In this document: positions 6,915 through 59,287 of the stretch, piece after piece
Layout: the number at the start of each line of letters is the position of its first letter
Position numbering within the stretch: the first letter of the stretch is position 1
Assembly: GCA_965219575.1 (NCBI GenBank)
Contig: OZ244779.1
Span: 268,769-332,768 of the forward strand
DNA from: Candidatus Oxydemutatoraceae bacterium
GTDB lineage: Bacteria > Pseudomonadota > Gammaproteobacteria > Poriferisulfidales > Oxydemutatoraceae
Direction: 5' to 3'
Length of the DNA stretch: 64,000 bases
The notes under the pieces: model-generated
Told to the model about the DNA's origin: nothing
Seen by the model: only the letters and a program-made list of their open reading frames with translations
Databases searched by the model: none
Position numbers and translations under genes: made by a program

Positions 6915-6930
6915 AGATTTACCACCGAAT

Positions 6931-8091: not shown

Positions 8092-8107
8092 AAGTTTACT
8101 TAAAAAC

Positions 8108-24595: not shown

Positions 24596-24911
24596 GGGCT
24601 GTTGAAAAAGTATCGTCAGCATGCAACCGTAACCGCTTGCGCCCCTCAATTACGCAAACCACCTGTAGGGGCGGACTGGCATGTCCGCCCTTAAGTGCCG
24701 TTCTGCACAGCCGTAACCGCTTGCGCCGTATGGTTTTTCCATAAATCGGATGAATGAATGTATAAATCGTGCAGATGCAACGCGTTACGGGCAGAACAAA
24801 GCCGCCGATTGAGCCAGTAGGTCAATCGGCGTGACTTTGTTTAGAACCTCAACATGACTGCTAAACGCACGCATTGCAAAATGCATAGGCCACCCCTCCA
24901 GAGGAGGGGAA
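24596..24911. repeat. Composite repeat starting with an unpaired left MITE TIR
   Basis: GGGCTGTTGAAAAAGTA, GTAG-type REP hairpin, GCCGATTGA hairpin and CCCCTCC/GGAGGGG hairpin. Confidence 0.8.
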
Positions 24912-24992
24912 CTGTCCACTCCTACACATGTCGGTCATATACAGGTTATAATGTGCAAATTGGTTTATAAACATAATAATCTATTTTTTAGG

Positions 24993-26132
24993 ATGTACGA
25001 TTTATATAAAACTCCGAAACTAATAGGGCAAGTTCTCCTTGTTGTTTTTCTACTTGCGGTCTTAGGCTCACAAATTGTGTCGGCACAGACGACCTTGCCA
25101 GATTGCACTAAGTCCTTAATAAACTTGCCCGAGTATGCAGAGGATGACGATGATGTGCCTCAAAATATGGATATTGACAAAGACGACGACGGCTTGATAG
25201 AAATCTGTGATTTAGAGGGGCTGTTTGAGATTCGCAATAACCTAACAGGTCAAGGAACTATAGCACAAGGTTGTCCTGCAGAGGGTTGCGAAGGTTTTGA
25301 ACTAACAAGGGATTTGGACTTCACCGCTGACGATAGCTATCGCACGACAGCCACCAAAGTAATGTACACAGTTGACAAGTACGACGATCCCGACGATACC
25401 GGCTGGGAACCGATAAGAACTTTTCCCAATTTTTTCAACGCAGAATTTGAAGGCAACGGACACACGATATCTAATCTTATGATCAACAGAAGTACGAATG
25501 ACATAGGCTTGTTTGGTATTACGGCCTCTTCTTCTAATATTGCTAATATTGGTTTACTGGATGTACGCATCGTAGGAGGGGATGATGTAGGTGGTTTAGT
25601 CGGCGATAATACCGGTTCTATCATGAATAGCTATGCGACGGGTTCTGTTTCGGGAAATAATCAGATAGGCGGTCTAGTCGGTCGGAGTGGTTCTGTGAAT
25701 AGTTCCATCACCAACAGCTATGCGAGGGGTTCTGTTTCAGGAACTAGTGATGTAGGCGGTTTGGTCGGTACGGATAATGGCGGTTCCATCATGAACAGCT
25801 ATGCGGCGAACTCTGTTTTAGGAGTTTCTCTTTTCGGCAATTTGGTTGGTGTCCTTAACGGTTCCATCAAAAACAGCTATGCGACAGGTACTCACAACTT
25901 AGTTGGTTCTTCAGGTCTTTCACACACCATCACAAACAGTTTTACGAGAACCGTAACACAACTGTCAAAACCGACAATGCCGGGGACAACGGCAACCGAG
26001 ATTTATTACAACTGGGATCCCGCCGTGTGGAATTTCGGCACTCCAAGTGATCTTCCGACACTCATAAACGCGCAGTTAATAGAAGGTATCCGAATCCGCA
26101 CCAAAGTATTTTTAGAAGGTCCCCTTCAATAA
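24993..26132 (+). CDS. Secreted GLUG-repeat adhesin-like protein with KVFLEGPLQ tail, copy 1
   Basis: Signal peptide (VSA-Q), DIDKDDDGLIEI, FEGNGHTISNL.I, repeated VGGLVG...I.NSYA.G.V. Confidence 0.75.
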   Translation: MYDLYKTPKLIGQVLLVVFLLAVLGSQIVSAQTTLPDCTKSLINLPEYAEDDDDVPQNMDIDKDDDGLIEICDLEGLFEIRNNLTGQGTIAQGCPAEGCEGFELTRDLDFTADDSYRTTATKVMYTVDKYDDPDDTGWEPIRTFPNFFNAEFEGNGHTISNLMINRSTNDIGLFGITASSSNIANIGLLDVRIVGGDDVGGLVGDNTGSIMNSYATGSVSGNNQIGGLVGRSGSVNSSITNSYARGSVSGTSDVGGLVGTDNGGSIMNSYAANSVLGVSLFGNLVGVLNGSIKNSYATGTHNLVGSSGLSHTITNSFTRTVTQLSKPTMPGTTATEIYYNWDPAVWNFGTPSDLPTLINAQLIEGIRIRTKVFLEGPLQ

Positions 26133-26160
26133 CATATCCCCCAATATTTATGGCAGACAA

Positions 26161-26206
26161 TTCCCCTCCTTCGGAGGGGTGGCAGGCGCAGCCTGACGGG
26201 GTGGTT
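26161..26206. repeat. Minimal CCCCTCC/GGAGGGG double-hairpin repeat (empty form)
   Basis: TTCCCCTCCTTCGGAGGGGTGGCAGGCGCAGCCTGACGGGGTGGTT; same core recurs at 30622, 45905 and 60306 in reverse orientation. Confidence 0.75.
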
Positions 26207-26306
26207 GTGTCGTATCTGTACCGGTTAATTCCACTTCTACACATGTCGGTCATATACAGGTTATAATGTGCAAATTAGTTTATAAACATAATAATCTATT
26301 TTCGGT

Positions 26307-27191
26307 ATGTACGATTTATATAAAACTCCGAGATTAATAGGGCAAGTTCTCCTTGTTGTTTTTCTACTTGCGGTCTTAGGTTCACAAATTGTGTCGGCAC
26401 AGACGACCTTGCCAGATTGCACTAAGTCCTTAATAAACTTGCCCGAGTATGCAAAGGATGACGATGATGTGCCTCAAAATATGGATATTGACAAAGACGA
26501 CGACGGCTTGATAGAAATCTGTGATTTAGAGGGGCTGTTTGAGATTCGCAATAACCTAACAGGTCGAGGAACAATGGAACAAGGTTGTCCTACAGAGGGT
26601 TGCGAAGGTTTTGAACTAACAAGGGATTTGGACTTCACTGATGACGATAGCTATCGCACGACAGCCACCAAAGTAATCTACACGACCAATTTCGACGATG
26701 AGGCCGACCTCGGCTGGGAACCGATAGGAGATTTTGACGATCCTTTCAACGCAGAATTTGAAGGCAACGGACACACGATATCTTATCTTATGATTAACAG
26801 AAGACGCGAGAGTGAAATAGGCTTGTTTGGGGGTACGGACACGCAGGCTAAGATTGCTAATATTGGTTTGCTGGAGGTAGACATCAGAGGAAATAATGCG
26901 GTCGGTGGTTTGGTCGGCGATAATGCTGCTTCCATCACGCAGAGTTATGCGGCGGGTTCTAATACTTTAGTCGGTTTGGCTCATCCTTCAGCCACAATCT
27001 CAAACAGTTCAACTAAAACCATAGTAGAACTGAAAACACCGACATCGGCGGAACTCGGGATATACAGCGGCTGGGACCCAGCAGTATGGGATTTCGGCAC
27101 TTCGGACGAACTCCCGACACTCATAAACCTACAAGGCATGGAAGGTATTCGAATCCGAACCAAAGTATTTTTAGAAGGTCCCCTCCAATAA
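26307..27191 (+). CDS. Secreted GLUG-repeat protein with KVFLEGPLQ tail, copy 2 (one repeat)
   Basis: Near-identical N-terminal ~110 aa to copies 1 and 3, same tail. Confidence 0.75.
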   Translation: MYDLYKTPRLIGQVLLVVFLLAVLGSQIVSAQTTLPDCTKSLINLPEYAKDDDDVPQNMDIDKDDDGLIEICDLEGLFEIRNNLTGRGTMEQGCPTEGCEGFELTRDLDFTDDDSYRTTATKVIYTTNFDDEADLGWEPIGDFDDPFNAEFEGNGHTISYLMINRRRESEIGLFGGTDTQAKIANIGLLEVDIRGNNAVGGLVGDNAASITQSYAAGSNTLVGLAHPSATISNSSTKTIVELKTPTSAELGIYSGWDPAVWDFGTSDELPTLINLQGMEGIRIRTKVFLEGPLQ

Positions 27192-27218
27192 CATATCCCC
27201 AATATTTATGGCAGACAA

Positions 27219-27742
27219 TTCCCCTCCTTTGGAGGTGTGGCCCATGCATTTTGCAATGCATGCGTTTAGCAGTCATACTGAGGTTCTGAACAAAGTCACG
27301 CCGATTGACTTTTGACATTCGTGTTATTTCTAATAGCCATAAATAGTTAAATCTCGTATAACGTAACGTTCCTTGTGCTACTGCAACAAGGAACGGTTAT
27401 TTGGTTCAATCGGCGGTTCTATTCAGCCTGACGAGGTGGTTGTGTCGTGGGGCTGTTGAAAAAGTACTTCATACAATGTAGGGGCGGACTTCATTAAATT
27501 GCCGATTGACCTACTGGCTCAATCGGCGGCTCTGTTCTGCCCGTAACGCGTACGTCTGCACGATTTATACATTCATTCACTTGATTTATGGAAACCAAAA
27601 CCAAATGGCGCAAGCGGTTACGGTTATTCTGGACGGTACTTAAGGGCAGACACACAGGTCTGCCCCTACGGCTTGGTGGTTATTATAAATTCATGGCGCA
27701 AACGGTTACGGTTGCACGCTGACGGTACTTTTCAACAGCCCC
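27219..27742. mobile_element. Nested repeat plus MITE (MITE at 27449-27742)
   Basis: MITE flanked by GTCGT duplication; the paralogous spacer near 26205 shows the empty site. Confidence 0.88.
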
Positions 27743-27841
27743 GTCGTATCCGTACCGGTTAATTCCACTCCTACACATATCGGTCATATACAAGTTATAA
27801 TGTGCAAATTGGTTTATAAACATAATAATCTATTTTTCAGT

Positions 27842-29119
27842 ATGTACGATTTATATAAAACTCCGATATTAATAGGGCAAGTTCTCCTTGTCGTTTTTCT
27901 ACTTGCGGTGTTAGGCTCACAAATTGTGTCGGCACAGACGACCTTGCCAGATTGCACTAAGTCCTTAATAAACTTGCCCGAGTATGCAGAGGATGACGAT
28001 GATGTGCCTCAAAATATGGATATTGACAAAGACGACGACGGCTTGATAGAAATCTGTGATTTAGAGGGGCTGTTTGAGATTCGCAATAACCTAACAGGTC
28101 AAGGAACTATAGCACAAGGTTGTCCTGCAGAGGGTTGCGAAGGTTTTGAACTAACAAGGGATTTGGACTTCACCGCTGACGATAGCTATCGCACGACAGC
28201 CAGCAAAGTAATCTACACGACCAATTTCGACGATGAGGCCGACCTCGGCTGGGAACCCATAGGGACTTTTGACAATCCTTTCGACGCAACATTTGAAGGC
28301 AACAGGTACACGATATCTCATCTTATGGTCAACAGAAGCACGAATGACATAGGTTTATTTGGTCTTGCGTCGGTGGTGGCTAGCATTACTAGTATTGGTT
28401 TGCTGGATGTACGCATCGTGGGAAATATGGATGTAGGTGGTTTAGTCGGTTCCAATTTCGGTTCCATAACAAACAGCTATGCGACGGGCTCTGTTTCAGG
28501 AAATGATGATGTAGGCGGTTTAGTCGGTACAAATGCAGGTTCTATCACGAATAGCTATGCGACGGGCTCTGTTTCAGGAACTAATAGTGATGTAGGTGGT
28601 TTAGTGGGTGTGCATTCGGGTTCCATAATGCAGAGTTATGCGGCGAGTACTGTCACAGGAGTGATGCTGCGAGTAGGCGGTTTAGTCGGTTGGAATAGTG
28701 CTATCAATAGTTCCATCGAGGACAGCTATGCGACGGGGAATGTTTCAGGAAATAGTGATGTAGGCGGTTTAGTCGGTCTGGATAATGGCGGTTCCATCAC
28801 GAATAGTTATGCGACGGGTTCTGTTTCAGGAAATAGTGATGTAGGCGGTTTGGTCGGTGCCTATTTCGGTTCCATAACAAACAGCTATGCGACAGGTATT
28901 ATGGCTTTTACTGGTAATAATGGAGGCAAACTCCTTGGCAAAAGCGGATTTAAAACTCTGACAGAACTGGAAACACCGACAGCGGCAACCGGGATATATA
29001 GCGACTGGGATCCCAAAGTGTGGGATTTCGGCAGTGCAACCGATCTCCCGACACTCAGAGACCCGCCGGAGGGTATCCGAATCCGCACCAAAGTATTTTT
29101 AGAAGGTCCCCTCCAATAA
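27842..29119 (+). CDS. Secreted GLUG-repeat protein with KVFLEGPLQ tail, copy 3 (most repeats)
   Basis: Six VGGLVG units, same N-terminus and tail. Confidence 0.75.
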   Translation: MYDLYKTPILIGQVLLVVFLLAVLGSQIVSAQTTLPDCTKSLINLPEYAEDDDDVPQNMDIDKDDDGLIEICDLEGLFEIRNNLTGQGTIAQGCPAEGCEGFELTRDLDFTADDSYRTTASKVIYTTNFDDEADLGWEPIGTFDNPFDATFEGNRYTISHLMVNRSTNDIGLFGLASVVASITSIGLLDVRIVGNMDVGGLVGSNFGSITNSYATGSVSGNDDVGGLVGTNAGSITNSYATGSVSGTNSDVGGLVGVHSGSIMQSYAASTVTGVMLRVGGLVGWNSAINSSIEDSYATGNVSGNSDVGGLVGLDNGGSITNSYATGSVSGNSDVGGLVGAYFGSITNSYATGIMAFTGNNGGKLLGKSGFKTLTELETPTAATGIYSDWDPKVWDFGSATDLPTLRDPPEGIRIRTKVFLEGPLQ

Positions 29120-29121
29120 AA

Positions 29122-29379
29122 CCGCCGATTGCGCCGTGAATTTATAATAACCACCAAGCCGTAGGGCAGTATAAAGCCGCCGATTGAGCCGGTAGGTCAA
29201 TCGGCAACTCTGATGTCTGCCCTTAAGTACCGTTCTGCACGACATCAACCGCTTGCGCCAACAAATAATGGTTTCCATAATATTAATGGGTGAACGCGTT
29301 AATCGTGCAAACATGATACGTTTCGGGCGGACATGCAAGTCCGCCCCTACAACTTTATGGAATACTTTTTCAACAGCCC
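29122..29379. repeat. MITE half with unpaired right TIR
   Basis: Reverse complement of about 50975-51228; ends TACTTTTTCAACAGCCC. Confidence 0.8.
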
Positions 29380-29486
29380 TACATTGCTATTTTGGGCTTA
29401 CAAAACACAAGTTTTTATTGTTTTATCGGTTGATTTGTGTTAGTTTAGTTTTTGCAGCCAATACACTACATTAATGGAGGTATGAA

Positions 29487-29708
29487 ATGGGTATAAATAT
29501 AGATAGTGCGGTAGGAGCCATCTCCTCTCAAGTAAACAAGGAAGAGAGCAAAATTGCCGACATGTCCAAGAACATGGATCCCTCGAATGTAAAAGATGTC
29601 ATGGAACTACAGATGGAATATAGTAAGTACTCTATGGAGGAGGAAACAGTGGCAGCTTTGGTATCTTCAATCAAAAAAATGATCGATAACATAACCCAGC
29701 GCATGTAG
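29487..29708 (+). CDS. sctF: T3SS needle subunit (SctF/YscF-like)
   Basis: 73 aa helical protein, DPSN turn, LQ..YSKYS and C-terminal IK.MID.I.Q pattern; GGAGG RBS; first gene of the T3SS run. Confidence 0.7.
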   Translation: MGINIDSAVGAISSQVNKEESKIADMSKNMDPSNVKDVMELQMEYSKYSMEEETVAALVSSIKKMIDNITQRM

Positions 29709-29726
29709 CGTGGGCTCATTAAAATA

Positions 29727-30125
29727 ATGACTTTTGAATTTGACAGCGAAACGTTGGTTCATGCCACGCAATTAGGTTTTATTGCGTGTAGGTGGCCGGC
29801 CCTCAAAGAGCATACTTTAGCCATTTTTAACGGGGCTTCGATTGCTCGTCCCGAAAGTCCGATAGGCCTTATAGGCAAGACTATGGTCTACTTGAATTGC
29901 GACAACGACCCCGAGGGTGCGGTTAATTTTCTCAGAAAAAATAATGTCTCGGGCAGTTCGGGCGCACCGGTTTGCCGTGCTTTTCTGGGCTTATGCTTAT
30001 ATCTTGCAAAACGGAGAGCGGAGAGCGAACAAGTTCTGAAGGAAATGATGGAGTCGGATGATAGCAATGATCCCGATGCGGCGGATTTAGCCAACACACT
30101 GCTGGAAGAACTCGGAGCGAAATAA
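29727..30125 (+). CDS. TPR-like T3SS accessory protein (needle co-chaperone or HrpB1-like)
   Basis: Helical 132 aa between needle and rod genes; assignment mainly by position. Confidence 0.45.
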   Translation: MTFEFDSETLVHATQLGFIACRWPALKEHTLAIFNGASIARPESPIGLIGKTMVYLNCDNDPEGAVNFLRKNNVSGSSGAPVCRAFLGLCLYLAKRRAESEQVLKEMMESDDSNDPDAADLANTLLEELGAK

Positions 30126-30126
30126 A

Positions 30127-30531
30127 ATGGCTATAGAATTCGGCGGTGCCTCTATACAGCAAAGTATTATCGAGAAGCTTCAGGATCAGCTTGCCCGTCA
30201 AGTAGACACTAAAAAAGAAGCAAAACCCGAAGATATAGAAAAATTTAAGGCGCAAATGGGTAATAACGAAGCGGATGCCGTGAAGGACAATCCAATGCAA
30301 GAACACAATGTGTCGGCCGCCGAGGCGAACAAGCCTTCGTTTATTGAAAGTGGACAATCACCGCTCATGCCAAATCATCAGACTCTGCAGGCAACTCCCG
30401 ACGCTACCGAAAAAGTCGGCGATTCGTTTCAGTCTCCCGGCGATCAGATTCTCAAAACCATGGTGGAGACGAGAAAAACCGTCACAGAAGTAGACAGCAT
30501 TACCTCAACGGAAACCGCGAGAAACTATTAA
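30127..30531 (+). CDS. T3SS inner-rod (SctI-like) protein, possibly C-terminally truncated
   Basis: D...F...M and SPGD.IL motifs, immediately before sctJ. Confidence 0.5.
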   Translation: MAIEFGGASIQQSIIEKLQDQLARQVDTKKEAKPEDIEKFKAQMGNNEADAVKDNPMQEHNVSAAEANKPSFIESGQSPLMPNHQTLQATPDATEKVGDSFQSPGDQILKTMVETRKTVTEVDSITSTETARNY

Positions 30532-30611
30532 GCTATTCGGCTTTTACAAGAATGCGAAAACGGTGCAATGTATACCGAAGCATGTAGAAAGCGTAAACAC
30601 AGGGGCTAATG

Positions 30612-30890
30612 CAGATACGACACCACCCCGTCAGGCTACGCCTGCCACCCCTCCACAGGAGGGGAATGTACCGATACTATACTCGTGCAGAATACGCTGC
30701 GACCACCCCGTCAGGCTTCGCCTGCCACCCCTCCACAGGAGGGGAATGTACCGATACTACACTCGTGCAGAATACGACACCACCACCCCGTCAGGCTTCG
30801 CCTGCCACCCTAAGGGCGGACATACAAGTCCGCCCCTACAAGGAGGGGAATGTACCGTTCCGACGGTTCATAGATACTTTTTCAACAGCC
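30612..30890. repeat. 80-bp tandem repeat (about 2.4 units) of the hairpin module plus an unpaired TIR
   Basis: ACCACCCCGTCAGGC starts at 30622, 30702 and 30782. Confidence 0.85.
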
Positions 30891-30937
30891 TCACGGCTTG
30901 CGGCGACGACGGTCGGGCATCGGACTGGGCAACCCTT

Positions 30938-31798
30938 ATGATTAATGTTGATGCAATTAAACACAGGTTTATAAACCTGAATTCCATCTTCAGATTGCTA
31001 TTCGTGGCGTTATTGTTGCTATTACTCGGTGGTTGCAAGGTAGAGCTTTATACGGGTTTGCCCGAACAAGAAGGCAACGAGATGTTGGCACTTCTACTTA
31101 CGCACGGCATAGAAAGCGAGAAACAGCCGGGCAAAGACAACATGATTAGTCTGTTTATAGAAGAGAGTCAAACTGCGAAAGCCGTTGAAATACTCACCAG
31201 AAATGGCTACCCCAAAACCAGATTTTCGACGATCAACGATATTTTTAGCAACGACGGCTTGGTGTCTACGCCTTTTGAAGAACGCACCCGATATATCTAC
31301 GGCTTGTCGCAAGAAGTTTCCATGACTTTATCGAAGATAGACGGTGTATTGGTAGCCCGTGTTCATGTTGTGCTACCTCCCGAGCAGACATCGAACCTAG
31401 GCAACAAAAAAGAGACTTTTCCAGCTTCGGCATCGGTTTTTATCAAATACAATTCGGATTACGACTTAAATTCGTATATCCCGCAGATGAAATCTATCGT
31501 TGCCAATGCCATAGAAGGGCTCTCATACGACCAAGTGAGTGTGTCTCTCTTTCCGGCAAAGAGCGAAGGCAGGGCCGATTTTTATCCGATTGAGTATAGT
31601 TCGGTTTTAGGCTTGAAAGTAAGCCCCGATTCAATCGGGCATTTATATACCCTGTTAGCCGTGTTGATCATCTTAATTTTTGCGGTTTTCTCGGGTAATA
31701 TCTATCTCTATATGGATAGAAAGAACAAAGTGAGCAAGGCGGAGGAGGTCGTCAAGGAAGCCGGATTAATCGCCGATAAGCAAGAGAGCACCACATGA
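30938..31798 (+). CDS. sctJ: T3SS inner-membrane ring lipoprotein SctJ
   Basis: Lipobox LGGC-KVELYTGL.E.EGNEM, IDGVLVARVHVV, SASVFIK; real start likely ATG 30938 because the longer ORF runs through repeat DNA. Confidence 0.93.
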   Translation: MINVDAIKHRFINLNSIFRLLFVALLLLLLGGCKVELYTGLPEQEGNEMLALLLTHGIESEKQPGKDNMISLFIEESQTAKAVEILTRNGYPKTRFSTINDIFSNDGLVSTPFEERTRYIYGLSQEVSMTLSKIDGVLVARVHVVLPPEQTSNLGNKKETFPASASVFIKYNSDYDLNSYIPQMKSIVANAIEGLSYDQVSVSLFPAKSEGRADFYPIEYSSVLGLKVSPDSIGHLYTLLAVLIILIFAVFSGNIYLYMDRKNKVSKAEEVVKEAGLIADKQESTT

Positions 31799-32439
31799 CC
31801 GACGCTGTTGCCATGCCGAGCGACACCTTGCGCCGTGTGATTGATTTTAATTTCTTCCCTTCGCTGGAAATGGACAACAGTTGGTGGGAGGCGGATTGGT
31901 TGCCCATTCCTTTGTTCGACAGGATTAGAAGCGTCAAAGCGGCGCACCGCAAATTGTCCGATTTTATTTTGGCGCGCTATCAGATAAAGAACGAAAATTA
32001 TTTTAACTTCGAGAGCTACGAGCGGCAAGCAGCTTTGTTGTGTAGTGCCGAATTGAAGGCTCTACTCTACAAAATGGGGCTGATTATAGAATCGGGCACG
32101 ATAGCGGGCGCAATCGAAAAAGAGGCACAGCAAGTAGTTAAAAAATCTTTGGGAGAAGCCGACTATTTATACGCATTAAAAAATAACATCGCTATGAGTA
32201 GCCGACACACCGAAAATAACGGCTCTTTCTCGGCACAAAAAATAAGCGACATCAAGGATTTCAAAAGCTATGTATATCAAAGCGGATTGCGTTGTCTACT
32301 CGGTTTGCTAAACGATATGCCGCAAGGATTTATTCAACGGATACTGTTCAAGCTCCCGAAAGCGTGGAGTGCGACTTCCTTTGAGAACAAAGCCGATTAT
32401 CGAATAATCAAAAACTACTTGCCGCAGCTATTAAATTAA
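31795..32439 (+). CDS. sctK: T3SS sorting platform protein SctK
   Basis: FNF.P...D.SW and R.LFKLP motifs; between sctJ and sctL. Confidence 0.75.
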   Translation: MTDAVAMPSDTLRRVIDFNFFPSLEMDNSWWEADWLPIPLFDRIRSVKAAHRKLSDFILARYQIKNENYFNFESYERQAALLCSAELKALLYKMGLIIESGTIAGAIEKEAQQVVKKSLGEADYLYALKNNIAMSSRHTENNGSFSAQKISDIKDFKSYVYQSGLRCLLGLLNDMPQGFIQRILFKLPKAWSATSFENKADYRIIKNYLPQLLN

Positions 32440-32445
32440 AAAGGC

Positions 32446-33081
32446 ATGAGCAGTTTTACCTTGGTTAAAAATAAAAACATCCGGATTCAATCTCACAGCC
32501 GAGTATTGAAAGCCGAGGACTATACGGTGGTTTTGCACGCCGCTCGGCTTGTCGAACAAGCGGAACAGGAAGCACAAAAAATAGTTGCCGATGCGCAAAC
32601 CGCTTACGAGAGCGAAAAAGCACGCGGTTATCGAGACGGTTCCGAAGAAGGACGGGCCAAGCAAGCGGAAAAAATGATGACCGCAATGATAGAATCGGTG
32701 CATTATTTTTCCGAAGTGGAAAATAAACTGGTCGATATCGTGATGTCGTCGACCAAAAAAATTTTAGACGGCTTCGACAACATAGAACTCACCAAAGGCA
32801 TAGTCAAGCAAGCACTCGATAAAGTCCGCAACGAGAGCAAGATTACCTTGCGGGTCTATCCCGAGCACGCCGACGAAATTAGAACGGAACTTAAAGAGAT
32901 TACCGCAAATTATACCAACATCGGCTTTATAGATGTGGTGGCGGACAGTCATATTCCCGAAAATGCCTGCAAAGTGGAAACTGAGATGGGGTCGGTCGAA
33001 ACCAGCGTGGATTTGCAACTGCGCGCCTTGCGCACCGCGTTAGCCAATAATTTTGACTCTCGGGCGACCGCGCTCGAATGA
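32446..33081 (+). CDS. sctL: T3SS stator SctL
   Basis: A..IV..AQ.AYE.EK.RGY..G, ETEMGSVETS...QL. Confidence 0.9.
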   Translation: MSSFTLVKNKNIRIQSHSRVLKAEDYTVVLHAARLVEQAEQEAQKIVADAQTAYESEKARGYRDGSEEGRAKQAEKMMTAMIESVHYFSEVENKLVDIVMSSTKKILDGFDNIELTKGIVKQALDKVRNESKITLRVYPEHADEIRTELKEITANYTNIGFIDVVADSHIPENACKVETEMGSVETSVDLQLRALRTALANNFDSRATALE

Positions 33082-33111
33082 TAGCCGACTCTGAAACCGT
33101 CCGATTGAATC

Positions 33112-33543
33112 ATGGTTAAACTCGATTTATTACTGAAAGAATTTGCCTATCAACATCATCTGGACGAACCGACTCCGGATGAAAAAAGTATCTACCACTT
33201 AACCATAGACGATATGGAGATTGCATGTTTTGAGAAGTTGAGTAAGGGTTATTTTTGCTCGACGCTGACGACTTTACCGGCACAAAATAGCACGATACCG
33301 ACCGTCTTGAAAGATGTGATGAACCACTCCCTGGCAAGAATTAAGTCTCAAACATGCGGTTTGGGATTAGACGAGGATAATAACCTGATTTTGTTTGAAC
33401 GTTTTGATATGGATACGATGAATCTATACGATTTTTCGGAGCGACTCGAGAAGTTCGTGAATGCTTTAGAAGAGTATCATCGCTTTACGACTGCCACGCC
33501 CACCGACCATCCTGCTGCCCCTAAGATGATTATCACACCTTGA
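33112..33543 (+). CDS. CesT/SycN-type class I T3SS chaperone
   Basis: Small acidic protein, Y.L.ID, LE.FVN.LE.Y C-terminal helix; T3SS context. Confidence 0.65.
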   Translation: MVKLDLLLKEFAYQHHLDEPTPDEKSIYHLTIDDMEIACFEKLSKGYFCSTLTTLPAQNSTIPTVLKDVMNHSLARIKSQTCGLGLDEDNNLILFERFDMDTMNLYDFSERLEKFVNALEEYHRFTTATPTDHPAAPKMIITP

Positions 33544-33557
33544 CGGCGATCCGTATG

Positions 33558-33828
33558 GGGGCTGTTGAAAAAGTATCCACGAACCGCAGGGGCGGGCGGA
33601 CGTACAAGTCCGCCCTACTATGTCCGCCCGAAACCGTATCATGTTTGCACAATTAACGCGTTTACCCATGAATATTATGGAAACTATAATTAGGTGGCGC
33701 AAGCGGTTAAGGTTGTGCAGAACGGTACTTAAGGGCAGACATGCTAGTCTGCCCCTACGGGTGGTTATCGTTAATTTAGTGGCGCAAGCGGTTGCGGTCG
33801 TGCGAAGTGGTACTTTTTCAACAGTCCC
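33558..33828. mobile_element. MITE (same TIR family) inside the T3SS operon
   Basis: GGGGCTGTTGAAAAAGTA...TACTTTTTCAACAGTCCC. Confidence 0.8.
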
Positions 33829-33851
33829 ATGCAGCGGTAGCCTTTAGTTTG

Positions 33852-36236
33852 ATGAAGACACTGCGCGTAAAAGTATTGTGGGGGTTGGGCTTTCCGGTAA
33901 TTTTATTCGTAATAGTATTATTGATTGCCAACTTTTTTTATGTCGACCATCAAATGAGAGAACTGACTTATTCGTATGTCAACGGCATGGCTCTCGAGGT
34001 CGATAACAAACTCAACATGCAGGTAAGCGAAGTAGAGGAAATGACCAGAGTTATTGCCGCCTATCTGAAACAGAATGACGATATAGACAAAGCACGTGTT
34101 CAAGGATTACTGGACAATTTATTGGATGCCGAAGAACAATACGATATTTTTACCGTTCGCAGACCTTTGGTGATAGAGGGTCATATAAAGGGTAACAACC
34201 GGTCGAATATTCGGCAACGAACCGTGAATAGTGCCGATGAAGCGCGCTACCAAAATTATTTTGAACTCGCCCGCCAACGCGATGCATGGAGTCGGTTGAC
34301 ACTCGAGGACGGCAACTGGAAAACCAGCTATATCGCTCCTTTTAAGACTACAGCCGACCATACCGACGGGATCGTAGCCGTCGATGTTTTGTTGTCCGAT
34401 TTAGTCTCCGAACTCCTCGACGCACGCATATCCGAAGATGCGGCGATATTATTTTCCGTCAAATTAGGCAGCGGTGTGACCGAGACACTGATATTAGATG
34501 ACGAGATACACGGTAAAATTAGGCAACTGAACAGCGGTCTATCCGATATGACAGATAACGCCGACGCAATGTTACCGAGTTTTAGCGCGCCGATGAAGGC
34601 GCATCAAATAGAAGACCCTTTAGATGGTCACGGACAAGTATTTATTGCCCAACTACCGGCCAGTTTTAGCCCCAATTTACAACTCATCGTGTTGCTACCT
34701 AAAGAAACGGTATTTTTGTATCTTTATCGTGCAAAACTTATAGAGTCGGTATCGGTGTTAATAGCTTTCTTGGGTTTATTACTGTTGATATCTCTGGTTG
34801 CAAAGTCCTTATCGAAGCCGATTTCCGCGCTCAGCCAAAGAGTAGAGGGGTTGGCGGCGGGTAATTTGAGTATCAAATTCCCGGCAACCGATTCGTGCAG
34901 AGAACTCAGTAGCTTATCGACAAACCTGAATCGAACGGTCGGACGCTTGAAAAGCTATTTTTCCGACCTCAAACGAGTTACCGCACAAAACGAGAGGATC
35001 AATAGCGAAATCAATATCTCCCACGATGTACAAATGTCGCTTTTACCGCAGCGTAGCGATTGGGGAGAAATCACCGATACCGATATATACGGGTGTACCT
35101 TGCCCGCCAAAGAGGTCGGCGGCGATTTCTACTACTTTTTCAAGATAGATCAACATCGCACGGCATTGGTTATCGGAGATGTGTCGGGTAAAGGGATGCC
35201 GGCGGCGATCATGATGGCGGTGTGTCTCAGCCTGTTCAAAGCGCAAAGTGCCAACATTCCGCAACCCGATGTATGCCTGCAAAAAATCAACCACTTTTTA
35301 ATGCAAGAGCATGCCGGTCAAGGTGCTTTCGTAACCTTGTTTTATGCGATTCTCGACACTTCCAGCGGCGAGTTGATCTATGCCAATGCAGGACATAACC
35401 CGCCGTTGATAGCGAGAAAAACCGGTTCCATAGAGTTTTTGGATCAAAAACACGGTGTTGCATTGGCGGTTGTGGAAAACCCGCGTTATGAAATTTATAA
35501 GACACAGCTAGGTTATGGTGATATGTTGTTGCTCTATACCGACGGCATCACCGAAGCGCACGATATGGACGAAGAAGAATTCGGAGAACAAAGGCTCACC
35601 GAATGTATCGCGTACTGCAACGAAATCAACGCTGCACAACCGGCGAGACATTGTGTGCAACATATTATCAAGCGTGTGGCTCAATTCATGCGCGGCTGCG
35701 TACAGTTCGACGATATGACCCTATTATGTGCGGTGAGACAAGATGCGCGCAACAATTTGCCGAGTACCGACTCCGAGTCGGCAAGCGATGACCCGATAAC
35801 AGGTATCGTCGAATTACGCAATCTGCAATTTAAGCATCATTTGAGTATTCGTTACGACATCAAAGAAATTAGTAAAATTGTTGATTTGATCGACTCTTTC
35901 TGCACCGATTACCATATTGATAGCGAGGTCGCTTCCGACCTGTGCGTTGTGGTGGATGAGTTTATATCAAACATTATCCGCCATAACGAAACGGACAAGA
36001 ATACCGGGTCGATTAAAACACAGCTGGCTAAAAGAGACGGTGTTTTGCTTTTGGTGTTGGAATATCAAGGGAAATCGTTTGATCCGTTGCAACCGCCTAC
36101 GCTCGATATACACGAAGATTGGCGCAAACGACGTCCGGGCGGGTTGGGGATCCACATCGCTCGACAGTTGATCGATTACAGTGCTTATATGCACAGTGCC
36201 GGAAAAAATGTTCTGGTAATAGAAAAAAAGTTGTAA
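33852..36236 (+). CDS. Membrane sensor-HAMP-PP2C (SpoIIE/RsbU) phosphatase fused to an RsbW-like HATPase_c anti-sigma kinase domain
   Basis: Two TM segments, HAMP, VGGDFY, GDVSGKG, NAGHNPP, YTDGITE, DDMT; C-terminal E..SNII.H...FDP...RPGGLGI. Confidence 0.88.
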   Translation: MKTLRVKVLWGLGFPVILFVIVLLIANFFYVDHQMRELTYSYVNGMALEVDNKLNMQVSEVEEMTRVIAAYLKQNDDIDKARVQGLLDNLLDAEEQYDIFTVRRPLVIEGHIKGNNRSNIRQRTVNSADEARYQNYFELARQRDAWSRLTLEDGNWKTSYIAPFKTTADHTDGIVAVDVLLSDLVSELLDARISEDAAILFSVKLGSGVTETLILDDEIHGKIRQLNSGLSDMTDNADAMLPSFSAPMKAHQIEDPLDGHGQVFIAQLPASFSPNLQLIVLLPKETVFLYLYRAKLIESVSVLIAFLGLLLLISLVAKSLSKPISALSQRVEGLAAGNLSIKFPATDSCRELSSLSTNLNRTVGRLKSYFSDLKRVTAQNERINSEINISHDVQMSLLPQRSDWGEITDTDIYGCTLPAKEVGGDFYYFFKIDQHRTALVIGDVSGKGMPAAIMMAVCLSLFKAQSANIPQPDVCLQKINHFLMQEHAGQGAFVTLFYAILDTSSGELIYANAGHNPPLIARKTGSIEFLDQKHGVALAVVENPRYEIYKTQLGYGDMLLLYTDGITEAHDMDEEEFGEQRLTECIAYCNEINAAQPARHCVQHIIKRVAQFMRGCVQFDDMTLLCAVRQDARNNLPSTDSESASDDPITGIVELRNLQFKHHLSIRYDIKEISKIVDLIDSFCTDYHIDSEVASDLCVVVDEFISNIIRHNETDKNTGSIKTQLAKRDGVLLLVLEYQGKSFDPLQPPTLDIHEDWRKRRPGGLGIHIARQLIDYSAYMHSAGKNVLVIEKKL

Positions 36237-36260
36237 AATTGTTAAGGATACGGAGGGGAT

Positions 36261-37586
36261 ATGAACACCAGTTTTAACTATATTACCGAAGCACTCGAAG
36301 ACACGATCGATCGTGCCGAGTTGCTCGAAGTCTGCGGCTTCGTCTTGGAAGTCACCGGCACCTTGATTCGTGCCGTCGTGCCGGGGGTCAAAATAGGCGA
36401 ACTTTGCATTTTGCGCAACCCCGGCGAAAAAGGTTCTTTGATGGCCGAGGTTGTCGGTTTTGAAGACCGCCGTGTTTTGCTGACACCGATGGGCGAGATG
36501 CTCGGTATTTCCAACAGCACACAGGTTTTACCGACCGGGCATTCGCACAGAGTGCCGGTCGGTCCGCAGATTTTAGGGAGAGTATTAAACGGCTTGGGAC
36601 ACCCTTTCGACGACGGTCCCGCTTTGGAAACCAATACTTTTTATCCGGTCTACGCCGATCCGCCGGAACCGATGAAAAGAAAAATTATCGATAAACCGTT
36701 GCCTATGGGGTTGAAGGTCTTGGACGGTTTGTTGACCTGCGGCGAAGGACAAAGAATGGGTATCTTCGCAGCTGCCGGCGGCGGCAAAAGCACATTACTA
36801 TCGATGCTCGTTAGAAGTGCCGATGCCGATGTAACCGTACTGGCTCTGATAGGCGAGCGCGGACGAGAAGTGCGCGAGTTTATAGAACGAGACATCGGCA
36901 CCGAAAATCTAAAACATTCGGTAATCGTCGTGGCAACCTCGGATCGTCCTTCTATGGAACGCGTCAAAGCGGCTTATGTCGCAACTGCGGTTGCCGAATA
37001 TTTTAGGGATCAAGGTAAGCGGGTGTTACTGTTGATGGATTCGGTGACACGATTCGCCCGCGCCCAACGCGAGATCGGGCTGGCTGCCGGCGAACCGCCG
37101 ACACGGCGCGGTTTTCCGCCGTCGGTTTTTGCGACTTTGCCGCAGCTGATGGAACGCGCCGGACAGTCCGACAAAGGTTCGATTACGGCACTTTACACGG
37201 TGCTCGTCGAAGGCGACGATATGACCGAACCCGTTGCCGACGAGACTCGCTCCATACTCGACGGACATATCATATTATCGCGTCAGCTGGCGAGCGCAAA
37301 TCATTACCCGGCAGTTGATGTATTGGCAAGCGTTAGCCGCGTGATGAGTGCGATCGTAGAAAAGGAACATGTAGACTTGGCGGGGCGGATGCGCGAGCTG
37401 CTTGCTAAATATAAAGAGGTGGAATTGCTGATCAAAATAGGCGAATACAAAGAGGGCAGCGACGAAGTGGCAGACGAAGCGGTAGCTAAAATAGAGGCTA
37501 TCAACGAATTTTTGAAGCAGGGAGTCGACGAAGTGTTCTCAACCGAAGAGGTTTTGGATTCAATGCAAGCGGTGATGGAGGATTGA
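36261..37586 (+). CDS. sctN: T3SS ATPase SctN
   Basis: [39 protein letters not shown]. Confidence 0.95.
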
Positions 37587-38062
37587 AGCAAATGATGATA
37601 TCGTTGGACGAGTTGCTGGATGTTAAGCGATTACGAGAAGATGAGGCGATCAAAGCAATGAAAGAGAAGCAATTACAGCTCGAGCAATGTCAAAAAATAT
37701 TAGCCGTCAAAATCACCGAACACGACGACTATGTGGCATGGCGTAAAGAGAAAGAAAAAGGCTTATACGAAGAAGTTTTAGAAAAAGAAGTTCACGCACA
37801 TAATCTCAACACGATGCGAGACCAAATTAGATTTTTCAAAGAACAACAACAACAACTTAAAGAAGAGATAGAAAAAGCACAGGCCGCAGTGACCGAGGCG
37901 ACCGAGCATCTGGCGGAAGCTAGACAAATGCGTATGGAAGCCTACAAAACGGTTAAGAAATACGAAGAATACAGAGATATTATGCAAGCCATCGAAAATC
38001 GTGAAACCGAAAGGCGCGAAGAACTTGAAGCCGAAGAATTCACCGTTCGCCCGGCAAACTAA
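37583..38062 (+). CDS. sctO: T3SS stalk protein SctO
   Basis: Coiled coil, L..VK.LRE..A, C-terminal E..EE.E.EEF; follows sctN. Confidence 0.8.
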
Positions 38063-38064
38063 CA

Positions 38065-38823
38065 ATGATTAAAAAAATTTCCGACGGAAAAAGAGCGCAA
38101 GAGCAGAGTGTCGAGTCTCATAAACTCGATGCACGCACCGTGTCAAAGGCAGCTGCCGAACAGTTTTCGTCTTTGGTGAATAAAAAACCTACCGCATCAA
38201 AGGAAATTTCCAAATCGCCGAAGCTCAAAAAGTCCGTAGATAAGGTAAAGGCTAAATTGGCAGAAAAAATGGGGGAGGCTAAAACCACCGCTCGCCGAAC
38301 ACCGATAAGCAAAAACGATTCGTCTGCCGATAAGCAAAAGTCGAACGACCAGGAGGCTTTGCCACAAAGCCTGGATGCATTCGATATCGCCGCAATGGCT
38401 GCCCGAAGTAATACCCAGACTCAAAGTGCGCCCCCGGTTGCCGAAACTACACCGGCACCCTCTGCAGACTTGAGTAAGATTGTCAATGAAATTGCCGACC
38501 GCATACTGGTCTCTTCCCCCGCCGACAACCCCACCGGTGCGCAAGAGATCCGCATCCACTTAAAAGAATCGGTATTGTCCGACACCGAAGTCCGTATTTA
38601 TCGCCACGCCGGTAGCCTGCAAGTTGAATTCCTGAGCGGATCTAAAGATAGCCAAATGTTTATAGCGCAAAAACAACCGGACATACAAAAGATATTAGGC
38701 GAACGGTTGGCAAACGAAACCGTCAATGTGTCGGTGCAAGATAGCCAACAAACGCGTGGCGGACAAGGAGAGGGACGCTCCCGCCAGCAATATATCGACC
38801 CCGACGCAGACAACCAACCGTAG
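38065..38823 (+). CDS. sctP: T3SS needle-length ruler SctP (FliK/YscP-like)
   Basis: Low-complexity N-terminus, I.DRILVS, EIRI.L...VL..TEV.I...G.L.VEF, GRSRQ. Confidence 0.8.
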   Translation: MIKKISDGKRAQEQSVESHKLDARTVSKAAAEQFSSLVNKKPTASKEISKSPKLKKSVDKVKAKLAEKMGEAKTTARRTPISKNDSSADKQKSNDQEALPQSLDAFDIAAMAARSNTQTQSAPPVAETTPAPSADLSKIVNEIADRILVSSPADNPTGAQEIRIHLKESVLSDTEVRIYRHAGSLQVEFLSGSKDSQMFIAQKQPDIQKILGERLANETVNVSVQDSQQTRGGQGEGRSRQQYIDPDADNQP

Positions 38824-39525
38824 AACCGCCGATTGAACCGGTACAGTGCCGGCGCATTCCCCTCCTTGTAGGGGTGGCACAAGTCAATTCCCCTCCTGTG
38901 GAGGGGTGGCCTACGCATTTTGCAATGCATGCGTTTAGCAGTCATGTTGAGGTTCTGAACAAAGTCACGCCGATTGAACCAGTAGGTCAATCGGCGGTTC
39001 TATTCAGCTTGACGGGGTGGTCGCTAAGAGGGGCTGTTGAAAAAGTGTGGGCATTGCTCAAACCCAACCGCTGTGCGCCGTGAATATTTGCAAACCACCC
39101 GTAGGGGCGGACTTGTATGTCCGCCCTAAAGTGCCGCTCTGCACAGCCGTAACCGCTTGCGCCGTATGGTTTTGGTTTCCATAAATCGGGTGAATGAATG
39201 TATAAATCGTGCCAACCAGCACGTTACGGGCGGACATACAAGTCCGCCCCTACCACTCTATGGAATACTTTTTCAACAGTCCCTAAGAGTCTGCACCAGC
39301 TAATTCCCCTCCTCTGGAGGGATGGCCTACGCATTTTGCAATGCATGCGTTTAGCAGTCATGTTGAGGTTCTGAACAAAGTCACGCCGATTGACTTTTGA
39401 CATTCGTGTTATTTCTAATAGCCATAAATAGTTAAATCTCGTATAACGTAACGTTCCTTGTGCTACTGCAACAAGGAACGGTTATTTGGTTCAATCGGCG
39501 GTTCTATTCAGCTTGACGGGGTGGT
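38824..39525. mobile_element. Composite repeat block containing a MITE (39030-39283)
   Basis: TAAGA duplication flanks the MITE; two expanded CCCCTCC modules, the second with the 92-bp nested insert. Confidence 0.85.
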
Positions 39526-39697
39526 CCCAACCACCTGCACCGCATCATAGCGGTTGCCACAAATCAAAAATGTGCCAATCTCGCCCGAGTAGAGTATAAT
39601 TAATACCTGCAAACGAATGAGATATGAATTTTTCATTTTTCTAGTCATTGAAACCCACAACAGCATTTTTGATAATTGAAGGAAAGAGAAATTAATT

Positions 39698-40300
39698 ATG
39701 AGATATACACTATGCTTAATTTTTTTGAGCTTTTTGGTGAGTAGCATGGCCGGCGCGCAAAGCGATGCCGAACACGGCAAATCAAAATCCATGACTTGCG
39801 CCGCTTGCCACGGTCCCGACGGCAACAGCGTTAACCCGCAGTGGCCTAAAATCGCCGGTCAGTCGGCACAATATATCACCAAGCAGTTGGAACATTTCAA
39901 AAAGAACGAGCGTGTCAACCCGCTAATGAACCCGCAGGCAGCGGCACTATCCGATGACGATATTAAGCACTTGGCAGCCTATTATGAATCGATCACTCGC
40001 AGTCCCGGTGCTGCCGACGAGAAATTGGCCGAAGCGGGTGAGAAACTATACCGCGGCGGTAATGCCGAAAGCGGTATTCCCGCCTGCATCTCGTGCCACG
40101 GCCCCAACGGCAAAGGCAATCCGGCAGCAGGTTTTCCCAACATTTCGTATCAACACGCAACATATTTGACTGAACGCCTCAAGAAATACCGTAGTGGTGC
40201 CGACACCTACAGTGGCTCGGAAATTATGAACGGTATTTCCGCTAAATTGACCGACGAAGAAATAGAAGCGGTCTCGTCGTATATGCAAGGACTGCATTAA
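39698..40300 (+). CDS. Dihaem cytochrome c4
   Basis: CAACHG and CISCHG haem motifs, signal peptide. Confidence 0.92.
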   Translation: MRYTLCLIFLSFLVSSMAGAQSDAEHGKSKSMTCAACHGPDGNSVNPQWPKIAGQSAQYITKQLEHFKKNERVNPLMNPQAAALSDDDIKHLAAYYESITRSPGAADEKLAEAGEKLYRGGNAESGIPACISCHGPNGKGNPAAGFPNISYQHATYLTERLKKYRSGADTYSGSEIMNGISAKLTDEEIEAVSSYMQGLH

Positions 40301-40302
40301 AG

Positions 40303-40971
40303 ATGTTCTCGCCACGCAATCCAATGACTCGTACTATGAGAACCCTATACGCATCGGGCATTGCCCTGATTTTTGTATTGTTGAGCCAGGCAGCATTTGC
40401 CGAAGAGTTTGTCGAAGGGAGCGACTATGATGTTATTTCTCCGCGTATGGAAACTACCGTCGGCGAAGACAAAATTGAAGTAATAGAATTCTTTTGGTAC
40501 GGTTGCCCGCATTGCTACACCATAGAACCGTATATCAAAAACTGGGAGATGCCGGCGGATGTGGAGCTGGTGCGCATCCCGGCGACATTCAGCGAACCAT
40601 GGATCATCCACGCCAAAGTCTATTACACCCTGGAAAGTCTAGACCGTCTTGATCTGCACGAGGTGTTTTTTAATGCGATACACGGCAGGCAGCAACGGCG
40701 CGACTTGGTGCGCGAAGATAAAATAGCCGAGTTCTTCGCCTCGTTTAGTTCCGGTATCCCCGAGGACAAATTTAGCAAAGCCTATAATTCCTTCATCGTT
40801 AATACCAAAACCCAAAAAGCCGATCGCTTGGTCCGCGAATACGCCATCAAGAGCGTACCGACTTTTATCGTCAACGGTCGCTACCTGAGCTCGCCGAGCA
40901 TGGTCGGCAGTTCCGAGCGTCTGATCGGTGCTTTGGATTATCTGACAAACCTAGAACGGGATAAATCTTAG
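40303..40971 (+). CDS. dsbA: Thiol:disulfide interchange protein DsbA
   Basis: EFFWYGCPHC, VPTFIVNG. Confidence 0.92.
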   Translation: MFSPRNPMTRTMRTLYASGIALIFVLLSQAAFAEEFVEGSDYDVISPRMETTVGEDKIEVIEFFWYGCPHCYTIEPYIKNWEMPADVELVRIPATFSEPWIIHAKVYYTLESLDRLDLHEVFFNAIHGRQQRRDLVREDKIAEFFASFSSGIPEDKFSKAYNSFIVNTKTQKADRLVREYAIKSVPTFIVNGRYLSSPSMVGSSERLIGALDYLTNLERDKS

Positions 40972-41007
40972 GCTGTGTGCCGAGGCACCCTATTCAATTC
41001 ACCCCTT

Positions 41008-41240
41008 AATTCCCCTCCTTGTAGGGGCGGACTCGTATGTCCGCCCTTAGGGTGGCCTATGCATTTTGCAATGCATGCGTTTAGCAGTCATGTTAAGGTT
41101 CTGAACAAAGTCACGCCGATTGAACCAGTAGGTCAATCGGCGGTTCTATTCAGCCTGACGGGGTGGTTATTATAAATTAAATGGCGCAAAGCGATTGGGT
41201 GCGTGCAAGTAATAATAAAGAGCAAACACACAAGTCCGCC
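41008..41240. repeat. Composite hairpin repeat (no TIRs)
   Basis: GTAGGGGCGGAC REP-like hairpin inside a CCCCTCC module, plus the GCCGATTGA hairpin. Confidence 0.78.
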
Positions 41241-41352
41241 TTTACATTGCGTTTTACATTGTGGTTCTGCACAATGTCACGCCGATCGGCGTCCGCCGAA
41301 TTGGATTCTGTCGTGCTGATATAATAGCCGATAACATGTTATATTTTTTACG

Positions 41353-42312
41353 ATGAAATACTTACAACGCAATCTAATCTATGCCGGTTTGTGCTTACTG
41401 CTCATCTGCTCGGCGAATATGGCTTCCGCACAAGCACCTGGGGTTAGCGTGTCAAGTAGTCAAACAGTGGTTAGTCGTACTATAGATTTCACCGTGAACT
41501 TAAGCCGTCAACTTGGCGAAGATGAAGCTGTAGCAGTTAATATTCGGCTTCGCGATATTGTTCAAAGTGAAGTCGAGAGTATAAATCCTTTGGGAAAGGA
41601 TAGTACCAACCTATGTAGGCTTGTAGGTGGCGGATTTCGGTTTAGACGAGAGAACACTGACCCTCCTGTTAGACGAGAGAACACTGACCCTCCTGAATAC
41701 AGTTTGTGCATGGATGAAGGTGAACAAAATGTGACCATACGATTAGTATTAAAGGATACTTTTGATACGAGCAGAGCTATAGCAATTTCTCTATTTGGAG
41801 GATCCTATGCTACTCCTGGCAGTATTGGTAACATTTTTGTCAGCTCAACCTTAAATATTTTGCCACCATTGGAGGTTAGCCTAGAAAGAGGGACAACCAC
41901 TCAAACTTCAATGGGTCTCCGAATAGATTTCAAAGTCAACTTAAGCCGTGAACTTACAGGTAGTGAGGTACTACAATGTACCATTGATTTTAACAATATT
42001 GATGACGATGAAATTGATAGTATAACGCTTGTGCCTCCTCATCCGTCGTCTACTAATTTGGGTGCTGGTAGTTCGGATCCCCCCAGACGCGACTTGAGAA
42101 CGCGCGCCGGTGCACAAGACACAACTATACGATTACAGCTAAAAAGTCCTCCTTTTGATGAGACAAAAATTATATCAATTTCTTTGAGCGGTTGTCTTGG
42201 TAGTAATATCGCCGAGGGTGTCGAAGAAGATCTTCAAAACTCTATTTTATATTATCCCGACACGGTTATTTTGATCCGTAGCAAGGTTTTTTTGGAGGGT
42301 CCGCTCCAATAA
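41353..42312 (+). CDS. Secreted protein with two beta-rich (possibly Calx-beta/Ig-like) repeats and KVFLEGPLQ tail
   Basis: Signal peptide (ASA-Q), IDF.VNLSR.L twice, ends IRSKVFLEGPLQ. Confidence 0.7.
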   Translation: MKYLQRNLIYAGLCLLLICSANMASAQAPGVSVSSSQTVVSRTIDFTVNLSRQLGEDEAVAVNIRLRDIVQSEVESINPLGKDSTNLCRLVGGGFRFRRENTDPPVRRENTDPPEYSLCMDEGEQNVTIRLVLKDTFDTSRAIAISLFGGSYATPGSIGNIFVSSTLNILPPLEVSLERGTTTQTSMGLRIDFKVNLSRELTGSEVLQCTIDFNNIDDDEIDSITLVPPHPSSTNLGAGSSDPPRRDLRTRAGAQDTTIRLQLKSPPFDETKIISISLSGCLGSNIAEGVEEDLQNSILYYPDTVILIRSKVFLEGPLQ

Positions 42313-59109: not shown

Positions 59110-59287
59110 ATCAAATAGATTAAGATTTTTGCGACGCTTTTTTCATATTCAAAACTTCCCATGTGGGAATAATAACATATCATAAAACTCTGTGCAGAAT
59201 GGTATATAATTCATAGTGATATGCTAAAAGATCACACGAAAACATGGAAGTTAAATATATAATTCCCCAAATCAGCACATTAATACG

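Follow-up and report, generated by a model that had tools for sequence, protein, structure and literature searches.

A stretch of 64,000 nucleotides from a Candidatus Oxydemutatoraceae bacterium (assembly GCA_965219575.1, contig OZ244779.1, positions 268,769 to 332,768; hereafter the window) encodes four secreted proteins that end in a common 14-residue tail, the KVFLEGPLQ tag. The window sits in a single-contig genome of 2.37 Mb (G000). Sequence comparisons indicate that this tail is the detached first β-strand of a widespread X-module-dockerin-like domain. The remainder of the domain would be supplied by a separately encoded secreted protein without this strand, here called the catcher. Overall, we consider it probable that the tail docks as a detached strand into the catcher, whose dockerin then likely sits on the cohesin-like head of an anchor protein with a GlyGly-CTERM-type tail.

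The four open reading frames (ORFs) were confirmed on the + strand, with the tails given in the initial annotation. Three of them encode GLUG-repeat passengers: passenger 1 (24993..26132, 379 aa from the ATG at 24993, which AGG directly precedes; longer start at 24951), passenger 2 (26307..27191, 294 aa, a tandem paralogue with fewer repeats) and passenger 3 (27842..29119, 425 aa from the ATG at 27842; longer start at 27800). Their matches to the Pfam GLUG profile have E-values of 1.7e-13, 0.047 and 3.5e-30, respectively. All three end in EGIRIRTKVFLEGPLQ followed by a stop codon, and the tag itself, IRIRTKVFLEGPLQ, occupies positions 26088..26129, 27147..27188 and 29075..29116. Passenger 4 (41353..42312, 319 aa) ends in ILIRSKVFLEGPLQ followed by a stop codon (tag at 42268..42309). 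It consists of two tandem modules that are 36% identical to each other, with the tag after the second module only, and belongs to a family of small proteins present in six or seven copies in the genome. A Pfam scan of passenger 4 gave no match, and an Atlas search, in which all leads remained under 0.9, gave a weak Calx-beta-like lead (score 0.85). The protein starting at 41353 has only the tag in common with that starting at 27800 (13 of 18 residues identical; next best local match E 2.0), so that its body is indeed unrelated to the GLUG proteins, as had been claimed. Sec-type signal peptides are also likely for all four proteins, whose N-termini show a hydrophobic stretch and an A|Q site (by eye and with a crude script). 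However, the three GLUG genes lie in tandem and are paralogous, with 96% identity over their first 300 nt. The four cases of the tail described initially all exist, but the window therefore provides two independent ones.

The tag is not confined to these four genes. A genome-wide search with a tail pattern, which missed a few divergent tails, identified 52 ORFs (taken from stop to stop) with the motif at their end, 45 of at least 150 codons. They span 485,547 bases or 20.5% of G000 (a slight overcount since ORF lengths were taken from stop to stop), and the largest tagged proteins reach about 16,000 residues. Such recurrence greatly exceeds chance expectation, with 39 matches of a degenerate tag-plus-stop DNA pattern in G000 versus 0 for the reversed control. 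In the 32 ORFs ending exactly in VFLEGPLQ, synonymous variation affects each of the eight codons, and each of the three stop codons is represented. The tag is therefore conserved at the protein level, as proposed from the window alone. A crude signal-peptide rule is positive for 38 of the 45 long tagged ORFs versus 175 of the 861 other long ORFs. Passengers are diverse: 11 domain classes stand before the tag, and the 21 passengers scanned (two in part) include GLUG, cadherin-like, Calx-beta, subtilase, LRR, FGE-sulfatase and PKD domains. The tag occurs within 40 residues after 5 of 142 GLUG-module ends and is thus not part of that module, nor an integral strand of the preceding domain. G000 has 36 ORFs of at least 1,200 aa. 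The tag forms the C-terminus of 24 of them and a divergent version that of one more, three contain it internally and one is the anchor described below; judged by their first and last residues, the other seven look cytoplasmic. The strand is internal or located just behind the signal peptide in four G000 proteins. Many intergenic regions, often just behind tagged genes, contain a short palindromic repeat (CCCCTCCT..GGAGGGG; for example window 24893-24909), with 59 exact-pattern copies genome-wide in a one-strand count.

The first catcher, P0001 (G000:C1:2246056-2246925, − strand), was found using short motifs of the larger domain and lies about 1.9 Mb from the tag genes of the window. A profile search added a single further match, P0188 (G000:C1:2216875-2217765, − strand). 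G000 thus contains exactly two catcher matches, both stand-alone. Homologue searches returned 45 and 2,184 proteins, and 186 sequences were sorted by script. One hundred of these contain the intact domain, with the strand consensus I-x-L-D-L-K-V-F-L-E-G-P-F/Y, 57 are stand-alone proteins of about 260-400 aa and 29 fall in neither class. The strand pattern [FLMY][LM][EQ]G is found before the core in 0 of the 57 stand-alone homologues. Once past the signal peptide, these proteins begin at the next conserved Met, located behind the strand of intact copies. Comparison of the tag profile with the intact-domain profile gives a probability of 94.6% (E 7e-8). These results bear out the suggestion, made in the initial annotation, that a KVFLEGP strand opens a larger domain. 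Aligned end to start, tag and catcher rebuild at the primary-structure level the domain that is one chain elsewhere. Catcher look-alikes fall in mostly Bacteroidota Atlas clusters, some with Dockerin_1, a profile found in 7 of 72 domain members. Among 59 catchers, a strict 12-residue calcium-loop pattern is absent from 18, occurs once in 25 and twice in 16. Neither Pfam nor NCBIfam includes a model for the β-sandwich part of the domain, which was placed by fold search only, and a sequence search of P0001 against solved structures gave nothing under E 0.26. In six giant paralogues (G000:C1:1232366-1331804 and 1448554-1458471), Pro replaces Leu in the tag (FPEG or LPEG, then LL). This subtype might prefer the second catcher, P0188.

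The model of an intact homologue, P0038 (pLDDT 94), shows the tag strand as E15-21 together with two helices. In fold searches it comes closest to two X-dockerin pairs, 3kcp_A (Z 10.3, rmsd 3.7) and 5g5d_B (Z 9.7, rmsd 3.8), aligned over 150 residues from residue 14/15, and the next match has Z 6.3. Sequence identity to these solved folds is 11-15%. The C-terminal part of the domain matches dockerins (2vn5_B, E 2.8e-4). Complex modelling of the tail with a candidate partner, as suggested initially, was carried out with P0001 and the last 35 residues of the 41353 protein. The score is 0.87 versus 0.22 for the best control. Among solved pairs, 116 of 157 attain the mark used for this score, compared with 2 of 215 mismatched ones; these counts are only roughly valid here because our own alignments served as input. 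Runs agree in at least 90% of contacts, with a partner pLDDT of at least 61, and confident contacts are restricted to tag-chain residues 19-35. The tag strand is modelled between catcher strands 118-120 and 195-199, in contact with G118, V120, V154, Y195-F199, V223, M224 and H179. G118 and H179 are invariant and D198/F199 near-invariant among catchers. No clear compensating catcher change was observed among the modelled interface columns in the genus with the LGG tag variant. The model supports the predicted binding of the tag by P0001, short of showing it. Docking by strand complementation, one of the options raised at the outset, is thus supported both by the complex model and by the separately encoded domain without exactly this strand.

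The gene order around the catcher points to the next partner. The putative anchor P0002 (G000:C1:2241568-2246025, − strand, about 1,470 aa) starts 33 bases behind P0001 and combines a cohesin-like head with a GlyGly-CTERM-type tail (Gly-run, hydrophobic stretch and basic cluster, by eye and script). The next gene encodes a rhombosortase (G000:C1:2240775-2241401, − strand; TIGR03902, 144 bits for a cut-off of 84), and type II secretion genes precede the catcher-anchor genes (GspE 664 bits, cut-off 630; GspD 448 bits, cut-off 351). A conserved cohesin-like head is found on the gene directly downstream of the catcher, or of a run of catchers, across six genera. Since neither Pfam nor NCBIfam includes a model for this head, it was placed by fold search only: the top 20 of 48,161 chains matching its model (pLDDT 75) are cohesin-containing entries (Z 11.2-7.7), and Foldseek gives a cohesin match at E 8.7e-5. 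G000 contains three cohesin-like domains, a single one in P0002, one at the head of a tagged 4,610-aa protein whose gene directly follows P0188, and one inside a tagged 7,914-aa protein. By script, only two G000 proteins have GlyGly-CTERM-type tails. The other one (G000:C1:960306-963353; L053:8382-11354) shows weak CLCA and choice-of-anchor X similarity and has no tag. In another genome (G009:C1:928238 onward), the reading frame of the cohesin-headed protein following the catcher stays open for 19,552 aa.

These elements suggest the following scheme. All parts would enter the periplasm by Sec, where the tag strand of a passenger would slot into the catcher by strand complementation. The catcher dockerin would bind the cohesin-fold head of P0002. 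This anchor may be processed by the rhombosortase and then use the type II system for export, as reported for Vibrio VesB. Each anchor would then carry a single catcher loaded with one passenger out of about 50 that are interchangeable, and the two passengers with both a cohesin-like domain and a tag may act as extenders. Such a split would let any gene join the surface coat by gaining 14 codons instead of about 240. That the tag binds the catcher is highly probable. The whole chain from tag to surface anchor is also probable, at a lower level of confidence; for the putative dockerin-cohesin binding, gene adjacency and the cohesin fold are the observations that bear on it. More tentative, at somewhat below even chances, is a genome-wide sorting system in which the 14-residue portable address clips about 50 proteins (about 200 in a relative) to one lipid-anchored cohesin base, proteins with both cohesin and tag chain into branched or very long fibres, and the FLEG and FPEG subtypes may choose the catcher.

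Phylogenetic profiling, advised initially as a way to find a co-occurring partner, supports the pairing. Catcher-sized matches and C-terminal tags are found together in 16 of the 19 genomes of family f1, the catcher of G018 being counted from its profile match. Tag pattern matches number 16-39 in g1 genomes, 217 in G006 and 4-25 in four g4 genomes. The strict patterns missed g2, g5 and g6, which were recovered with a Gly variant pattern (12, 21 and 3 LGG-type matches in the g5 genomes) and with a tag profile (longer-tailed variants in g2 and g6; 10 of 27 profile matches read). Variants are genus-specific (LEGPLR, LEGALE, LGGMVR, LEGAVIP and LEGPYEYR) and each stops a few residues past the glycine. 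In G012, a single 650-aa ORF (L019:6514-8466) combines a cohesin-like head, an LGG-type strand and a catcher-type domain. It is possibly a re-fusion or a self-polymerising unit. Fused and split states are both present within the family: G005 contains 25 domain matches in frames of 687-17,496 aa, all seven junctions read are intact, one of them following a GLUG module end like that of the window, and two patterns identified no C-terminal tags in this genome. Its fused state may be either ancestral or the product of a re-fusion. A quick tree of 60 domains places the stand-alone catchers on one side of a branch with support 78.

Outside this family, 22 genomes from other families of the order gave no catcher and no rhombosortase match, and among 300 genomes of the class the domain occurs only in f1 and f104. 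The strand is present in all nine f104 copies read, and tag-like patterns are no more frequent there than in the control. In f104 (L140 and L143; G322 and G140), intact domains occur on several proteins clustered with proteins that end in VPTLSQW, a hydrophobic stretch and a basic tail. This tail is presumably IPTL-CTERM-like, which suggests that the unsplit system uses a different membrane anchor. Among 185,579 species genomes, the exact tag-LQ-stop pattern is found at 43 loci, 39 of them in Candidatus Porisulfidus or Candidatus Oxydemutatoraceae. In-frame stops lie just upstream of the remaining four, which are thus likely chance occurrences; the reading of matches outside the family covered these four loci, a single match being also recorded in G026. 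Porisulfidus is listed as a known sponge symbiont in PMC12988363, and the present host is probably sponge-associated.

Several observations weigh against the proposed scheme. The 19 genomes of f1 are kin and not independent, and a single origin of the stand-alone catchers is neither shown nor rejected by the weakly supported tree. The cohesin-head profile finds nothing in G005, despite the 25 intact domains of this genome. Conversely, G011 has one cohesin-head match and neither catcher nor tags were found there, while tags and no catcher were found in G016, an assembly 85% complete in 230 contigs. The strict calcium-loop pattern occurs 0 times in the P0001 dockerin and once in that of P0188. 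A Pfam scan of P0001 alone gave no match, and no NCBIfam model matched the P0002 tail. The X-dockerin fold match is moderate (rmsd 3.7; Foldseek gives the same ranking with a best E of 6.6e-3), and the pass of the complex model may reflect mere likeness because the partners are two halves of one ancestral fold. Finally, a search for type I secretion adaptors yielded none that reached the cut-off, and the scheme does not account for the passage of 1.6-MDa passengers through the outer membrane.

Part of this evidence could be read differently. The tag may bind the catcher while the latter serves as a periplasmic export adaptor or chaperone handing passengers to type II secretion. Such a role would suit catcher operons that adjoin type II secretion genes in several genera, the one or two catchers that serve 39-217 tags in G000 and G006, and the degenerate calcium loops of P0001. 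However, catchers keep their dockerin half, the next gene, or the one behind a run of catchers, is cohesin-headed in every genus read, and the intact ancestor is a terminal docking-type module rather than a chaperone, so we regard this role as unlikely. It is quite improbable that the catcher likeness reflects ancestry only and that another partner, such as a minor (pseudo)pilin of a type II or type IV tip, reads the tag by β-augmentation. The genome does encode a type II secretin, and strand augmentation is reported for the binding of PilK by a C-terminal plug of 12 residues (bioRxiv 10.64898/2026.09.18.752573), but the catcher is missing exactly this strand, and its core would otherwise be open. 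Moreover, tags accompany stand-alone catchers in family f1, the genome with intact domains shows no tags, and tags also occur internally and just behind the signal peptide.

The remaining two alternatives concern the passengers and the final assembly. Tails could be remnants left by the truncation of domains, or could cap the domain before them, and would have no partner in trans. Of the 52 tagged ORFs, seven fall short of 150 codons and several resemble gene fragments, and many passengers are paralogues, some copies of which would simply have inherited the tail. This explanation is nevertheless largely refuted, and we give it hardly any credence, in view of the 11 domain classes preceding the tag, its rarity after GLUG modules, the synonymous-only variation of the 32 copies and the genus-specific variants that all stop within a few residues of the glycine. 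It is also very improbable that the tag-catcher and dockerin-cohesin links mainly build free extracellular or periplasmic polymers (matrix or sheath) rather than a cell-anchored coat. The two G000 proteins of 4,610 and 7,914 aa with both a cohesin-like domain and a tag could contribute to such polymers, as could the arrangement in G001, where a tagged protein directly precedes another catcher and cohesin-headed protein and units could in principle chain head to tail. On the other side, a GlyGly-CTERM-type cohesin protein adjoins the catcher in most genera read, therefore indicating a membrane-bound base.

If docking of the tag into the catcher and anchoring through P0002 are confirmed, the tag would represent a class of C-terminal sorting signal that completes a fold in trans, with neither a membrane helix nor a protease acting on the cargo. 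It would also explain how two anchor-type genes suffice, in a bacterium with a small genome, for the display of giant adhesin-like proteins by the dozen. The tag and catcher would form a compact natural pair for protein engineering, and the genus variants might be orthogonal.

Several other features of the window and genome were observed. Type III secretion genes (window 29727-38823) directly follow the three GLUG genes and include SctJ, SctK, SctL, a CesT-type chaperone, SctN (over cut-off), an HpaP/SctP-like and a weak CdsG-like gene. They are interrupted by a gene for a membrane HAMP-SpoIIE-HATPase phosphatase (33792-36236). Three tandem paralogous genes at 5802-10318 (370, 386 and 746 aa, the last an internal duplication) have no Pfam or NCBIfam match; their CMHVR motif hints at a possible glycosyltransferase-like family. 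The cytochrome oxidase gene cluster contains two neighbouring genes for DNA methylases (N6_N4_Mtase), encoded on opposite strands (58276-60166). Elsewhere in the genome, the start of a 1,271-aa ORF (G000:C1:1753040-1756855) contains a motif that may be Cas9-like.

Each component of the proposed system has a known counterpart, and the split arrangement is apparently undescribed: no description of a split X-dockerin tag or of the KVFLEGP string was found in the open-access literature, subscription journals and supplements being outside the search. SpyTag/SpyCatcher is an engineered covalent pair derived from split CnaB2, and CnaB-type isopeptide tags need an invariant reactive Lys or Asp/Asn. 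The present pair likewise consists of a peptide tag and a catcher produced by splitting one strand off a domain, but it is natural, and a CnaB-type isopeptide bond is not indicated. Its Lys is often replaced by Arg in tags and is present in 54 of the 100 intact homologues, so that the link is probably non-covalent. In chaperone-usher pili, a strand of one chain completes the β-sandwich of another, the donor being an N-terminal pilin extension and an usher being needed. Strand complementation would be common to both systems, whereas the tag is mostly C-terminal, is carried by unrelated cargo and would complete an X-module. A BAM β-signal was rejected, in agreement with the initial annotation, as the terminal residue is Q in 41 of 42 seed tails and not aromatic. 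The PilC/PilY1 C-terminal plug is reported to add a β-strand to PilK and to stabilise this acceptor (bioRxiv 10.64898/2026.09.18.752573). There, a short C-terminal peptide of a large adhesin docks as a β-strand, with one adhesin and one pilin acceptor at the pilus tip; here, dozens of passengers would share as acceptor what is left of the domain from which the tag itself derives.

The anchor resembles Vibrio cholerae VesB, whose GlyGly-CTERM is reported to be cleaved by rhombosortase and which is lipid-conjugated and exported to the surface by the type II system (PMC6219818). The tail of P0002, GlyGly-CTERM-type by eye and script, and the adjacent rhombosortase over cut-off are similar. The tag itself is not a GlyGly-CTERM, having no Gly/Ser motif, transmembrane helix or basic cluster, as already recognized. 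With two tailed proteins in the genome, the approximately 50 passengers would be held indirectly through tag, catcher and cohesin. The closest likeness of the intact domain is to the X-dockerin of Clostridium thermocellum CipA/ScaA (PDB 3kcp, 5g5d, 2b59 and 4u3s), a β-sandwich X-module followed by a dockerin. Its pairing with the type II cohesin of a surface scaffoldin, which tethers cargo to the envelope (PMC5141474), parallels the cohesin fold on the putative anchor. A cellulosome is nevertheless not indicated, since the anchor holds a single cohesin-like match out of the three of G000 and the 21 passengers or parts scanned include no glycoside hydrolase family; the cargo here comprises GLUG, cadherin-like, subtilase, LRR and FGE-type proteins. 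The host also differs, being a Gram-negative gammaproteobacterium whose anchor bears a GlyGly-CTERM-type tail. Finally, the module is split in G000, with its first strand on the cargo and the rest in a separate secreted protein, whereas G005 and f104 have the one-chain form at the cargo C-terminus.

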